This document shows, one piece after another, positions 1 to 6,533 of a stretch of 16,843 nucleotides of DNA. The stretch spans positions 1-16,843 of the forward strand of contig DXJL01000170.1 of NCBI GenBank assembly GCA_019057635.1. Reading direction: 5' to 3'. Origin of the DNA: Candidatus Heimdallarchaeota archaeon (lineage in GTDB: Archaea > Asgardarchaeota > Heimdallarchaeia > Hodarchaeales > Hodarchaeaceae). The notes below the pieces were generated by a model. It saw nothing but the letters and a program-made list of their open reading frames with translations, searched no databases and was not told the DNA's origin. Made by a program: the position numbers and the translations under genes. Positions within the stretch are counted from its first letter, which is position 1. Each line of letters begins with the position of its first letter.

Positions 1-447
1 ACTGGATAAGGTTGCAGCGGTGGATGCATATGAAATCTGCACAATATGATCATCTTTCGCTAGGTTTGCTACAGGTGTCGAAGCAGCTGAAGCGGCTGCA
101 CCAATAATCAGTTCAACGCCTGCTGCTTTAAGAGTGGTATAAGCTGTCACAGCTGTGGTTTCCACCCCTCCAGTATCTTCCACTTGGAGATGGATATCGA
201 AGTCAAAATCACTCGAAGCATTTATTTCAAACGCAGCGGCTCGCACACCATCAACTAATCCTGGCCCGAGGGCTTCAAGATCACCTGAAAGGGGTGCCAA
301 TACCCCAACCTCAATTACAGCTGGGAGGGCTTGCACCTTAGCTTGTGGATTCACTACAACTGGGGTTGCTTGTACGGTAGACAAACCTATTAATCCGAGG
401 AGAAGGAATGTCAAACCAAATGTAGATAATTTTTTGTATTTATTCAT
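1..447 (-). CDS. ABC transporter substrate-binding protein, branched-chain amino-acid (LivJ/LivK, type I periplasmic-binding-protein) family; 5' part only, runs off the window start
   Basis: Manually translated open frame from ATG at 447: MNKYKKLSTFGLTFLLLGLIGLSTVQATP (signal peptide)...IEVGVLAPLSGDLEALG...VEDTGG...LIIGAAASAASTPVANLAKDDHIVQISYASTAATLSS. The IGvlaPLSG, EDT, IIG..S and QISYAST motifs are typical of this family. An in-frame TGA a few codons upstream fixes the start. Confidence 0.92.
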   Translation of the reverse strand, partial: MNKYKKLSTFGLTFLLLGLIGLSTVQATPVVVNPQAKVQALPAVIEVGVLAPLSGDLEALGPGLVDGVRAAAFEINASSDFDFDIHLQVEDTGGVETTAVTAYTTLKAAGVELIIGAAASAASTPVANLAKDDHIVQISYASTAATLSS

Positions 448-540
448 ACTTTCACGTCATTTTCTCTTATCGAGAATTTCTTTTTTACCACTGTTAAGAC
501 CGATTCTTGATTTATTCAAAATTTTCCAAAAACAAGATCT

Positions 541-603
541 TTAATAGCCATGATCAGCATTTGGAAATTTTAAAAGCACTAGAACTACCAAGAAATATAG
601 CAC
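541..603 (-). CDS. Putative 20-aa hydrophobic Leu/Val-rich leader peptide MLYFLVVLVLLKFPNADHGY
   Basis: GTG start at 603-601 and TAA at 543-541. AAGGAGG (617-611) lies 7 nt upstream of the start. An in-frame TAA at 609-607 makes this GTG the first possible start. It contains seven consecutive Leu/Val codons. Confidence 0.45.
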   Translation of the reverse strand: MLYFLVVLVLLKFPNADHGY

Positions 604-747
604 TGGTTACCCTCCTTAATCCAAACGCTCTAAGTATTCACAAAATACTCAAATTCGGTTCGGATTAAAGGAAGATCACTGGTATTAATAATGATACCAG
701 TGCCAGCGAATCTCAATAATTGAGCTTTTGAACAATCCGAATCGAAT
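600..747 (-). promoter_or_regulatory. Structured leader RNA or cis-regulatory element with alternative stems
   Basis: Inverted repeats: 653-666/734-747 (14 bp, one non-Watson-Crick position), 677-685/694-702 (9 bp perfect), 712-716/720-724 and 633-638/644-649. Competing pairings: 658-674/611-626 (16 bp on the minus strand with 2 GU and 1 bulge) and 696-703/600-607 (8 bp perfect). Confidence 0.5.
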
Positions 748-780
748 CATTAACAATCAAGAATCATCACAAAAAATAGC

Positions 781-789
781 TATATAAAA
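781..789 (-). promoter_or_regulatory. Candidate archaeal TATA box (TTTTATATA) with purine-rich BRE-like GAAGAAA just upstream
   Basis: Matches the archaeal TTTAWA consensus on the minus strand. It would place the transcription start near 757-760, just 5' of the structured element. The AT-rich context makes a chance match possible. Confidence 0.35.
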
Positions 790-994: not shown

Positions 995-1840
995 TTACAT
1001 CTTTTCATAATGCTCTTTATATTGATCTGCAGCATTAATAGCTCTTTCAGCGTTAACTATTATCCGTTTCTGAGCCCAAAAAGTATCAATCGAATAGAAA
1101 ATAACCGCACCCAAGAAGAAGATCCAAACTAAGACATCAATTGGATTTTGGGTTAGTAGGTTATAGGTGATTGTCGCACACATGATGAGAAGAGCATAAC
1201 CAAAGGAGAGAAAGATATAGCTCAGTGAATCGATGTATAACCAATTCTTTATCCAATTTACCCCTGCGAACTCAATGTATGAACCAACGAATATTGCTAT
1301 AAACAACAACCCTAATAAACCTGCAAAAAAGAAAGCAAAAAAGGTACAAATAGCTCTTAAATATAAGAAGTATTGATCCTTTCTTGTTTCTCCAAATCGG
1401 TACTCAAACAAAATCATTGGTATGATAAATAATATTCCAGGAAGAAAAAACCATTCTACAGGTGCTAAGATCATTTTGCTTATGGATATTGTGTGAAATG
1501 TTACCATTGCCCACGCAAAGCCGACATAATAACTAAATCCAAAATCTGGATTCCAAGGGTGGTATTTCCATTTATTGGATTTCACTCCCCAGTAATCAGT
1601 GACATAACCAATCATTAAGCCAAACCAGAAAAACGACCATTGTTGCATCTCTGCTCCAAAAACAATTTCGTATAACACCATATAGAGAATTCCTAAACCT
1701 AAACACAACCAATCATTCCGTGTTTTGTTATTTAACCATAATACAAAAGGAACACCAAATAAGAAAAAAGCTAAGTCCCACAAAGGGATAAAGGAAACAA
1801 GTTCTTCGGGTAATAGCATGACAAGACCAAATTTCTGCAT
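995..1840 (-). CDS. Polytopic membrane protein with an internal duplication; function unknown
   Basis: 281 aa with many hydrophobic segments. Two similar halves: TRND...IGYVTDYWGVKSNKWKY and TRKD...VGSYIEFAGVNWIKNWLY. Confidence 0.8.
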   Translation of the reverse strand: MQKFGLVMLLPEELVSFIPLWDLAFFLFGVPFVLWLNNKTRNDWLCLGLGILYMVLYEIVFGAEMQQWSFFWFGLMIGYVTDYWGVKSNKWKYHPWNPDFGFSYYVGFAWAMVTFHTISISKMILAPVEWFFLPGILFIIPMILFEYRFGETRKDQYFLYLRAICTFFAFFFAGLLGLLFIAIFVGSYIEFAGVNWIKNWLYIDSLSYIFLSFGYALLIMCATITYNLLTQNPIDVLVWIFFLGAVIFYSIDTFWAQKRIIVNAERAINAADQYKEHYEKM

Positions 1841-4033: not shown

Positions 4034-5575
4034 ATGACCTATCGTCGAGAAACTTGGAATCGATTTTTACAAACGATCTTACAGAGGATACCACCTCTAA
4101 TTTCTAATTATTCACCCTCTGACCAGATGCTAATCAGGACTGTGTTTGAAATTCTATCTAACAGTGGGGTGAGTACTAAAGAGGAACGGGATAGATTTCT
4201 TACTAACATGGATCAATTCGTACAAGACACAATAGATGAAATGGACTATTTTCAAACACCCTTTTTATGGTTTTCAAATACGTTTTTTCTCAATTCACAG
4301 CGTCTATTACTTGAAGCAAGTTTCCATGCAGATGATTTCATACAATATCTTGTCAGAGTATTACGAGGCGACACAGACACACAAGGATTTTTCCAACTTT
4401 TACAAAACAAAACCTCACTGAAGGATCTTAAATGGGAAGCACTACAATATTACTGTAATGAGATACATGATCCCTTAACAGAGGTCCAGATAGACATTCT
4501 ACGAGTTATTTATGCTATGGTTAATTCAGACCCTCTACGTGCGATGGATCAGCATTATATTACTCGTGAAATTGCCAATAATGTCCAAGTACCAAAACAA
4601 TTCCGGGGTTTACATCATTTATTTTCCCGTCTTGACTCAAGATGGGGAGTATGGATGTTCCCTGAGGCATTTGGAATAAGTATTTTATTGTTTAGATTAA
4701 CATTGGCCAAAACGCGTGAACTAGAATCTTTAATCGACTTTCTCGCCCCAGAGAATGTTGTTCTTGCAATGAGTAACGTTTATTGCAATCCTGATAAGCC
4801 CAAATCCTTTTTTGGGTTTATTTATACACCGAGTGAGACAGTTACTCAATTAACTGCTTACTTTGAACAAATGCTCGGTAATGATGATCTATCCGATTTT
4901 CTGATAGAACCAATTATTTCAACGCAGGCCGGGTCTTCATTAGCATTATATTCTTCAGGTAACGGGTGGGAGGATGTGTACCTACCTCAACAATTTAAGA
5001 ATGCAATTGAAAGTAGAAGAAGTATTAATCCGAAAGATGTATCGTTAAAAATGGGATGTATAACACCCCAATTATCTAATAGACTGAATTACAAGCTACT
5101 GGAGTCTCCACAACAGGCCATTAGCGTATATATCAAAGCATACAAGGCTTTTTCATTTGGAAATCTACCTATAAAACTTGGTGAAGATTATCACAACTCA
5201 GTGTTTTCTCAGGCCGATCTGGCATTACTAGCTAAGTTCTTCTCTAAGAAAATTGCTGGACCCACTTTCACGGTTCGAAATATCCTCAACGAGTTTTCAC
5301 TTGATATGTTTTGGGTCGAAATTCCTCCTAAATGGAAATGTACAGCACCCAGATTTCTCCATTGGTTACCTTGGGCTTCGATTCTTTCAACTGCTGATAA
5401 GACCATCCTCATTGCTCCTCTCACCTCAAATCTACTCAATTGGATTGAGAATCAATTATCTTGGCATATCGAACAGATCCACACAGTTTTTCGTCCCAAA
5501 GGTCTAAAGGAGGCGTGGTACGATTATCAAAAGGTATCTTGGAAAATACCTCGCATTTTAGATCTCAATAAATGA
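4034..5575 (+). CDS. Large hypothetical protein, possibly a divergent tandem winged-HTH / Lrp-AsnC-like regulator
   Basis: 513-aa ORF. LTEVQIDILRVIY resembles the first helix of a wHTH. It is followed by FPEAFGISILLFRL, which resembles the Lrp linker, and a second weaker unit FSQADLALLAKF...NEFSLDMFWVEIP. Confidence 0.6.
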   Translation: MTYRRETWNRFLQTILQRIPPLISNYSPSDQMLIRTVFEILSNSGVSTKEERDRFLTNMDQFVQDTIDEMDYFQTPFLWFSNTFFLNSQRLLLEASFHADDFIQYLVRVLRGDTDTQGFFQLLQNKTSLKDLKWEALQYYCNEIHDPLTEVQIDILRVIYAMVNSDPLRAMDQHYITREIANNVQVPKQFRGLHHLFSRLDSRWGVWMFPEAFGISILLFRLTLAKTRELESLIDFLAPENVVLAMSNVYCNPDKPKSFFGFIYTPSETVTQLTAYFEQMLGNDDLSDFLIEPIISTQAGSSLALYSSGNGWEDVYLPQQFKNAIESRRSINPKDVSLKMGCITPQLSNRLNYKLLESPQQAISVYIKAYKAFSFGNLPIKLGEDYHNSVFSQADLALLAKFFSKKIAGPTFTVRNILNEFSLDMFWVEIPPKWKCTAPRFLHWLPWASILSTADKTILIAPLTSNLLNWIENQLSWHIEQIHTVFRPKGLKEAWYDYQKVSWKIPRILDLNK

Positions 5576-5695: not shown

Positions 5696-5977
5696 ATGGT
5701 TAGATTAATTTTCAAAAATCGAACGTTTTCAGAAGGTAGAGAAGAATCTGGGGATGCTGTTCTTATTCTTGATGAAGCTACTCAAACTGGAAAATTAGAA
5801 TACTCTCCTGACGCTGGATTAGTCATACGTAGAACAGCCCGAAGACAAGCTGAGAGTATTTGCAAATCAGGATTCTTATTGGGGAGTGGTAAACGACTTG
5901 GAATTAGTTTCAAACTTGAATCCGAAGAAGATTCGATTGGCGATCGATTGACCCAAATAGGTCACGAATATCGGTAA
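5696..5977 (+). CDS. Small protein, candidate divergent single gelsolin-like domain
   Basis: 93 aa with GGAG upstream. SGDAVLILDE...AGLVIRRTARRQAESI aligns by eye with the gelsolin core pattern SGD..ILD...(W.G..S)...ER..A...A..I, but the W.G residues are not conserved. Confidence 0.5.
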   Translation: MVRLIFKNRTFSEGREESGDAVLILDEATQTGKLEYSPDAGLVIRRTARRQAESICKSGFLLGSGKRLGISFKLESEEDSIGDRLTQIGHEYR

Positions 5978-5990
5978 ATTGGCATGTCCA

Positions 5991-6533
5991 ATGTCTGCTG
6001 GTGAAACGTATAAAGTTTTAATATGCGGAGATTATGCCGTAGGTAAAACTACGTTTGTGAAAACATTTCTAGATGAGGATAAAGCATTTCTAGAAGGATA
6101 TAAACCAACTATAGGAGTAGATATTGCTCGAAAGACTTTCACTCTTGACTCCATTGAAATTTGTTTTCAAATCTGGGATTTATCAGGCCAACAATCGTTC
6201 AAAACAATACGTCCTCAATTCTACAATAGAAGTGATGGAGTAATACTAGTTTTTGATATCACACGAAGAGATTCCTTTACTAATCTCTCTTCGTGGCTTG
6301 AGGAAATTCTTGATCAAACAGGAAGAATACCCATTGTAGTGGTAGGAAATAAAATAGATTTAGTAAATAAGACTGAGGATATTGTTCCCCAACAAGAAGC
6401 TAAGGAATATGTTGATCATGTATCCTCGTTAACGGGAATAAACGCTCCGTATATACAAGCTTCTGCAATTAATAGACAAAATAATTTCGATCCATTCATT
6501 ACTTTAGGGAAACTTCTTATCGAAAAACAATGA
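5991..6533 (+). CDS. Rab-like small GTPase (Ras superfamily)
   Basis: G1 GDYAVGKT, G2 YKPTIGVD, G3 WDLSGQ, G4 NKID, G5 ASA. RabF-like segments IGVDI, FQIW and LVFDIT. No C-terminal Cys prenylation motif. Start is ATG 5991 or TTG 5979. Confidence 0.95.
   Translation: MSAGETYKVLICGDYAVGKTTFVKTFLDEDKAFLEGYKPTIGVDIARKTFTLDSIEICFQIWDLSGQQSFKTIRPQFYNRSDGVILVFDITRRDSFTNLSSWLEEILDQTGRIPIVVVGNKIDLVNKTEDIVPQQEAKEYVDHVSSLTGINAPYIQASAINRQNNFDPFITLGKLLIEKQ

Follow-up and report, generated by a model that had tools for sequence, protein, structure and literature searches.

A conserved mRNA leader with two mutually exclusive folds, and its possible role as a switch, upstream of a Liv-type ABC transporter operon in Hodarchaeota

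Locus, putative promoter and distribution of the element

The window, that is the whole stretch of DNA analysed here, is an entire contig of 16,843 bp (~36% GC) from a member of the Hodarchaeota, which are placed within the Asgard kingdom Promethearchaeati (NCBI). The element under study sits in a 547-bp gap that separates two minus-strand genes, a membrane ORF and a gene for a substrate-binding protein (Table 1). The binding-protein gene starts at the ATG 447-445 (minus strand) and has its own SD-like sequence, GACGUGA, at 458-452. At homologous loci, where the binding-protein orthologues are full-length, these are followed by LivH-, LivM-, LivG- and LivF-like genes. Throughout, G000 denotes the genome of the window, and G002, G018 and G004 those of its homologues, G004 being the most divergent.

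Table 1. Features at the leader locus, with positions numbered along the window.
Feature	Position	Strand	Remarks
Binding-protein gene	1..447	-	Peripla_BP_6 / ANF_receptor; N-terminus signal-peptide-like; truncated by the contig end
Segment g, AAUCAAGAAUCGGUCUUAACAGUGG	488..513	-	possible third partner of segment a
Hairpin P5, UUUCCAAA ... UUUGGAAA	523..567	-	U5 run in the 3' arm, then AUUUUGAAU
Short uORF (GUG, 20 aa, MLYFLVVLVLLKFPNADHGY, UAA)	541..603	-	peptide not conserved
Segment e, GUUUGGAUUAAGGAGGGU	609..626	-	3' partner of c in fold B; SD-like GGAGG at 615-611
Inner hairpin, nested in the c-e helix	629..653	-	stem sequence variable; UUU..UGA of the loop region conserved
Segment c, shared strand	649..676	-	partner of a (fold A) or of e (fold B; helix core 676-658)
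Hairpin P3, CACUGGUAU / AUACCAGUG	677..702	-	in both folds; best-conserved helix
Hairpin P2, CUCAA-UUA-UUGAG	712..724	-	fold A; in the MFE; genome-specific, 60% of cells pair across the four homologues
Segment a, GUUAAUGAUUCGAUUCGGAUUGUU	731..754	-	5' partner of c in fold A; first 8 nt invariant in 4/4 homologues
TATA-like box, TTTTATATA	781..789	-	read in the sequence; element lies ~10 nt further on
Upstream membrane ORF	995-1840	-	281 aa, multi-pass, without Pfam family

Nineteen of the 22 genomes of the genus carry the membrane gene. No NCBIfam family is assigned to the orthologue in G002, and the orthologue in G020 carries one in-frame TGA. The LivH-like permease of G002 (L045 6633-9002, minus strand) is 789 aa long; its BPD_transp_2 domain spans residues 432-724 only, which leaves a long N-terminal extension of no assigned family. 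In G004 and G018, the counterparts of this permease have lengths of 551 and 817 aa, respectively. Other genes on the contig encode a Ras-family GTPase, a DUF63 protein, a KaiC-like protein, DnaJ and thioredoxin. On the plus strand, a 513-aa ORF at 4034-5575 has no Pfam family, and at 5696-6533 a 93-aa ORF immediately abuts the gene of the Ras-family small GTPase.

A TATA-like box had been read at 789-781 in the first-pass annotation of this DNA; the sequence is present there and the element lies just after it. TATA-like sequences were observed at the aligned position in G018, G004 and G002 too, and a TBP is encoded in the genome (in the control search, TBP matches were obtained in archaea only). 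From the position of the box, transcription probably starts ~22-27 nt downstream of it, near 770-758. One 151-nt metatranscriptome contig (depth 3, one run) covers 362-512; provided that it represents RNA, it implies a 5' UTR of 65 nt or more. No contig of this run mapped to 537-2000, an absence that counts neither for nor against transcription there. In G002, G004 and G018 (L045, L046 and L047), a near-identical block, GTGAAAATGTAATTGCAATATAAACAAG, lies ~20-60 nt upstream of the TATA-like box. It holds the palindrome ATTGCAAT, is aligned to about 830-795 of the window and could be a transcription-factor operator. In the alignment of the window's own genome with these three, the block is absent from the former.

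We found the element in four genomes of one genus only, and the gene order is the same at all four loci: membrane gene, leader, binding protein and LivHMGF-like genes. The leader, counted from its conserved 5' block to the start codon, measures 319, 318, 324 and 318 nt in the four homologues. A BLAST search over 41 relatives returned two homologous intergenic regions, with 80% and 73% identity. Of 83 genomes of the class searched with the covariance model R1, four have the element, among them G004 with its more divergent copy. A second model, R2, was built from all four sequences. Applied to 22 genomes of the genus, it recovered the same four copies with E-values no higher than 7e-34, together with 14 further weak matches (E 0.01-0.44) in nine genomes. 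The two best of these weak matches, in G002:C4 (27 bits) and G007 (23.7 bits), do not adjoin a transporter gene. The G002:C4 match falls in a stretch (L075 1135-2211) of more than 1 kb that has no ORF of 70 aa or longer, and it shares GUUAAUGA and UAUCU with the element.

In a 151-genome sample of the phylum, R2 matched only G000 and G002; the 22 genomes listed for this sample do not include G004 and G018, and none of the other 129 gave a match. Scanning 185,579 species genomes for a sequence pattern gave only three contigs, equal in length to G002:C54, G004:C101 and G018:C57. A metagenome scan with the G002 binding protein yielded 16 loci, one with 74% identity and the rest with 24-26%. R1 with its filters off gave no match on 15 of these 16 loci (L062 was left out), and the 331 nt upstream of the 74%-identical binding protein are not homologous to the leader and fold with a z-score of -0.43. 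Within its own 3.19-Mb genome the element is single-copy (the next best match is 20 nt long, E 0.086), R2 finding no second copy at E below 0.09; a MITE-like repeat or mobile element was rejected on this ground.

The leader is absent at the two inspected loci, in G020 and G010, where no binding protein follows the membrane gene. In view of this absence, and since the element has its own TATA-like box, we rejected the possibility that it terminates transcription of the membrane gene. In G010, a similar-looking hairpin is located between convergent genes.

Several other identities were considered and set aside. The first-pass annotation had been unable to match the leader to a known riboswitch consensus, and Rfam agrees, with no match at gathering scores in the whole window. 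When Rfam 15 was run on 400-1000 with E up to 10, six matches were obtained, all far below threshold, the best being snoU18 with 18 bits against the 47 needed. An archaeal C/D box sRNA was rejected on that score and because its candidate box, GUGAUGA at 769-763, is not kept: the homologues have UAGGAUU, GAGGAUU and GGGGUGU at this place. A T-box-like reading of a UGGN motif fails because the motif is not conserved in the homologues. A SECIS element does not fit either: its motif is likewise not conserved, the genes on either side are free of internal stops in the four element-bearing genomes, and in fold A of G004 the AUGA of segment a takes part in Watson-Crick pairs. Passages of PMC11227280 indicate that clades other than Loki, Thor and Sif appear to be without Sec usage.

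Two mutually exclusive folds of the leader

The RNA read from the minus strand folds far more stably than dinucleotide-shuffled controls. The MFE of 760-590 is -56.1 kcal/mol compared to a shuffle mean of -34.3 +/- 3.9 (z -5.65; 0/200 shuffles as low). For 766-590 the z-scores ranged from -5.1 to -5.7 (0/200 as good), and for the 351-nt stretch 790-440 the value was -5.39 (0/100). Minus-strand windows placed over the element gave z-scores of -4.5 to -7.1, and the background, taken from 20 strand-windows in seven other intergenic regions of the contig, ranged from +0.75 to -2.40. The 180-nt domains of the four homologues behaved similarly (z -5.1, -4.2, -4.2 and -5.2; 0/200 shuffles each). The plus strand folds to -40.4 kcal/mol only and loses the c-e helix described below; the G-U pairs of fold B are therefore strand-specific, as had been claimed for them.

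Both folds described by the first-pass annotation were reproduced, and all of the helices that it quoted occur on the minus strand. In fold A, two arms of 14 nt (653-666 and 734-747, 93% complementary) close a three-way junction with the hairpins 724-712 and 702-677; this is the MFE helix of a transcript cut before 626. Fold B is the MFE of 760-590, in which 676-658 pairs with 626-609 around the nested hairpin 653-629, and the hairpin 702-677 is retained. Nucleotides 666-658 are common to both folds, which makes them mutually exclusive, as the annotation had stated. Two details were found to be local. The outer helix that was proposed to bury the GUG (~708-696 with 607-600) is present in the window but is unique to this genome; it rests on ACCAGUG, in place of which both G002 and G018 have AUCUACG. 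Likewise, hairpin 724-712 (P2) is present in the MFE but is not kept in the homologues.

The individual helices differ in how they are conserved. The a-c duplex has an energy of -17.3 kcal/mol, which 1/1000 shuffles reached. All the cells of P3 pair in 4/4 homologues, one pair varying as U-A, U-G and C-G. In the inner hairpin, two pairs are changed on both sides, with 64% of the cells paired in an alignment that is uncertain at this place. In fold A, the junction nucleotides show little conservation among the four sequences, which give no support to P2 either. Further downstream, P5 is found in the full-leader MFE of G000, G002 and G018, and G004 has a hairpin of different sequence at the same place.

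Segment g forms a duplex of -19.0 kcal/mol with an extended segment a (3/1000 shuffles as low). Its complementarity is notable in three species and weak in G004 (62/1000), and the comparison of homologues revealed no own-versus-cross pattern for this pairing. We also observed that g complements the 5' end of the leader, which is invariant; UUGUUAA/UUAACAG of G000 has its equivalent in AUGUUAA/UUAACAU of G018 and G004. The a-g complementarity hints at a long-range closing helix, to which G004 lends weak support.

On the alignment of the four sequences, 84% of the cells pair in fold B compared to 36-48% with slid partners. Six pairs of this fold have both partners changed, a number reached in 5/500 shuffles, and four of the six lie in the c-e helix; the covariation score was reached in 1/500. 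The RNAalifold consensus is also fold B. Fold A, on the other hand, did not rise above shuffles on the unedited MAFFT alignment of the same four sequences, its covariation score being reached in 129/500. The a-c helix of G004 has 17 bp with two small bulges, which cannot be represented in an ungapped alignment, and support for a-c needs indels in G004.

We therefore compared the two pairings through their energies, each segment being paired with its own partner and with that of the other genome. For a with c, the own pairs have energies of -17.3 (G000) and -18.2 kcal/mol (G004) and the cross pairs -7.4 and -11.8. For c with e, the own pairs have -22.5 (G000) and -19.1 kcal/mol (G004) and the cross pairs -8.3 and -13.3. 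When substitution sets of equal size were drawn at random, the observed energy was reached in 34 and 11 of 5000 cases for a, and in 46 and 0 of 5000 for e. Both alternative helices are kept by correlated, compensatory substitutions in G004, a single divergent lineage; fold A does not exceed shuffles on the plain alignment. The comparison covers four sequences and effectively one independent divergence (G004 versus the other three), too few for an R-scape-type statistic. As read from these sequences, c changed in the G004 lineage and both its partners followed; this one divergence is the main evidence that both conformations matter.

The order of folding was followed in silico as the MFE of the growing transcript. 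In G000, G002 and G004, the a-c helix is present from ~112 to 142-148 nt, and c-e replaces it beyond ~148-166 nt. The order fold A first, fold B once e is made, was hence obtained in three of the four species but not in G018, where a-c does not become the MFE at any length of the growing transcript and 12 kcal/mol are needed to enforce it. For the full-length RNA, equilibrium favours fold B by 8-25 kcal/mol, and the probability of a-c is at most 2e-6 in all four. The direct-path barrier from fold A to fold B was estimated heuristically at 11-16.5 kcal/mol. Because fold B wins at equilibrium by such a difference, any switching would have to be kinetic, i.e. set during transcription, or driven by a factor.

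Shine-Dalgarno motif and short upstream ORFs

The 3' end of the 16S rRNA of G002 is GGAUCACCUCCU, and AAGGAGG in segment e complements its CCUCC; owing to this complementarity AAGGAGG is a strong SD-like sequence. It had been proposed that the two folds alternately expose and hide the SD and the start codon. The hidden pair, however, does not belong to the downstream gene, whose ATG lies ~165 nt further on and is preceded by its own GACGUGA. The GUG at 603-601 opens an ORF of 20 aa only, and G002 and G018 have no GUG at that position. GGAGG is present in three of the four homologues and absent in G004, and serves at most a short unconserved uORF.

A start codon is found 6-12 nt after e in all four homologues. 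The counterparts of the uORF are 8 aa (G002), 18 aa (G018) and 54 aa (G004) long and unrelated in sequence. The peptides start with LYFLVVLVLL in G000, FLVIPVL in G002 and ILEFLGLEF in G018. The uORFs of G000 and G018 enter the 5' arm of P5 and both stop at leader position 226, and the stop codon of the G004 uORF overlaps the ATG of the binding protein (ATGA overlap).

We calculated the accessibility of these signals with and without the a-c helix enforced. In the three species having GGAGG, the mean unpaired probability of the motif is 0.01-0.10 in the free ensemble compared to 0.28-0.40 when a-c is enforced. In G004, which lacks the motif, the corresponding probability stays at 0.27 on enforcing a-c (0.27 before). 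The predicted accessibility of the transporter RBS is not affected by enforcing fold A in the four homologues (0.67/0.62, 0.60/0.60, 0.26/0.31 and 0.47/0.47). Since the hidden SD is not that of the gene, the transporter RBS does not respond, and the uORF and GGAGG are not conserved, we infer the output of the switch from the arrangement of the leader; ribosome loading on the leader is most likely the controlled step.

Interpretation of the leader and its relation to known systems

The element is a real, conserved and strand-specific structured leader with two co-varying, mutually exclusive helices, and it constitutes a new family of RNAs from an Asgard archaeon, of a regulatory kind that is already known. 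We propose that it is the 5' domain of an mRNA leader of ~319 nt that belongs to a Liv-type (HAAT family) ABC transporter operon of Hodarchaeota, in the Heimdall group of Asgard archaea, and that it works as a two-state, kinetically controlled switch; we give this reading a probability of about 0.5. During transcription, segment a would pair first with c and close the three-way junction with P3 (fold A). Once e has emerged, it could take the place of a and give the far more stable c-e helix (fold B), which would hide the strong SD-like AAGGAGG and the start of the short uORF. The state that persists would then decide ribosome loading on the leader. This loading would set the expression of the operon, either via passage of ribosomes over P5 with its U-tracts or through coupling as suggested by the overlap in G004. 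The trigger may be a metabolite, a protein, a tRNA or the translation status, and the transcript would presumably run from the start site predicted above into the operon.

The same observations bear on a static reading, in which fold B alone is functional as a 5' stem-loop domain for mRNA protection, protein binding or processing, and a-c is an intermediate of folding or a by-product of the resemblance of a to e. The dominance of fold B in the ensemble of all four homologues and in the RNAalifold consensus is what this reading would expect, as is the weakness of fold A in G018 and on the plain alignment. The P3 stem, moreover, is invariant in sequence, which suggests sequence-specific recognition. 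A by-product, however, should not track c, and the four substitutions in segment a of G004 restore pairing with its own changed c, as judged from the own versus cross energies and from the rarity of random substitution sets that do as well (34 and 11/5000); we consider a static element unlikely. If the three-way junction of fold A were instead an aptamer, for example for a transported amino acid, the leader would be a metabolite riboswitch in the strict sense, with the ligand holding fold A against e. The junction topology, the a/c/e arrangement resembling an expression platform, a kinetic order suited to co-transcriptional sensing, the position ahead of a transporter operon and the lack of a match to known families all speak for it. 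Nevertheless, the junction strands vary, P2 is not conserved and the distribution is confined to four species of one genus; a ligand-held fold A would also switch uptake on when the ligand is present, which is an unusual logic. We hold this reading to be rather improbable. The same low expectation attaches to its boldest form, namely a first natural riboswitch class native to Asgard archaea, in which a three-way-junction aptamer would sense an amino acid or a related metabolite co-transcriptionally and strand displacement between a and e would gate ribosome loading on the Liv-type leader.

Two further readings place the function outside the a/c/e segments. The uORF starts of G000, G002 and G018 are rich in Leu, Val and Ile and stand ahead of a Liv-type transporter, and in G000 and G018 the uORF runs into the 5' arm of P5, which has a U5 run, and stops at the same leader position; a leader-peptide attenuator, in which ribosome stalling senses charged branched-chain tRNAs and controls P5 with its U-tracts, was considered for these reasons. 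It is very unlikely, because the uORF of G002 ends after eight codons, before P5, and that of G004 is 54 aa long and not rich in Leu, Val or Ile. Moreover, U-rich sequence in a genome of 36% GC gives such codons by chance, the substitutions show no third-position bias (alignment inspected by eye), the uORFs lie downstream of a/c/e, and the only terminator-like site found in a scan is P3 itself. To our knowledge, hairpin-dependent termination is not established for the archaeal RNA polymerase. We see still less in favour of an independent small non-coding RNA gene that merely happens to lie upstream of the operon, in spite of its own TATA-like box, the compact stable 5' domain and the U-runs that follow this domain in some species. 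No conserved U-tract stands directly after the domain (G018 has none), conservation and constant length continue to the start codon, and inspection of 600 to 447 by eye revealed no further conserved promoter-like box. Wherever the element occurs, the binding-protein gene follows it, and the RNA-library contig over 362-512, if it is RNA, gives a 5' UTR of at least 65 nt.

The proposed two-state switch can be compared with three known kinds of leader. Bacterial translational riboswitches, e.g. the adenine add and TPP thiM leaders, have expression platforms built of three segments, anti-anti-SD, anti-SD and SD. Here, too, there are three segments, and the one in the middle can pair on either side. 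Its helix with the downstream segment conceals an SD-like GGAGG, that with the upstream segment closes a junction of several helices, and the order of synthesis favours the upstream helix first. Unlike those platforms, the element has no Rfam match, and neither a ligand is indicated nor a conserved junction core seen; the hidden SD belongs at most to a short uORF that is not conserved, and not to the regulated gene, one homologue is without the SD motif, and the host is an Asgard archaeon. The trp, leu and ilv leaders are leader-peptide transcription attenuators of amino-acid operons. Common to them and to the present leader are the length, an amino-acid-related operon, alternative hairpins, a short ORF rich in Leu, Val and Ile (in three of the four species) and a downstream hairpin associated with U-runs. 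The uORF here, however, lies downstream of a/c/e rather than within segment 1 of the alternative hairpins, neither its length nor its content is conserved, and a scan detected no canonical hairpin-plus-U-tail terminator at P5.

Among archaea, the fluoride (crcB) riboswitch of Thermococcus kodakarensis is described in PMC8241225 as the only experimentally determined natural archaeal riboswitch at that time. It shares with the present element the character of a cis-acting structured archaeal leader upstream of a transport-related gene. The two differ in that no match of sequence or structure was obtained in the Rfam scan, the present element is about three times larger, and it is confined to one genus. 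A full-text search of the literature on riboswitches in Asgard archaea and Hodarchaeales, in titles, the opening lines of abstracts and parts of PMC10450193 and PMC11227280, gave no description of such an element.

Natural RNA switches are barely documented in archaea, and this leader is a candidate in a group with almost none known; its reach is limited to four species of one genus. The two exclusive, co-varying helices make it a concrete, mutable test case for control of translation or transcription by RNA structure in the closest prokaryotic relatives of eukaryotes, and the leader could show whether SD-dependent gating of a uORF operates in Asgard archaea.
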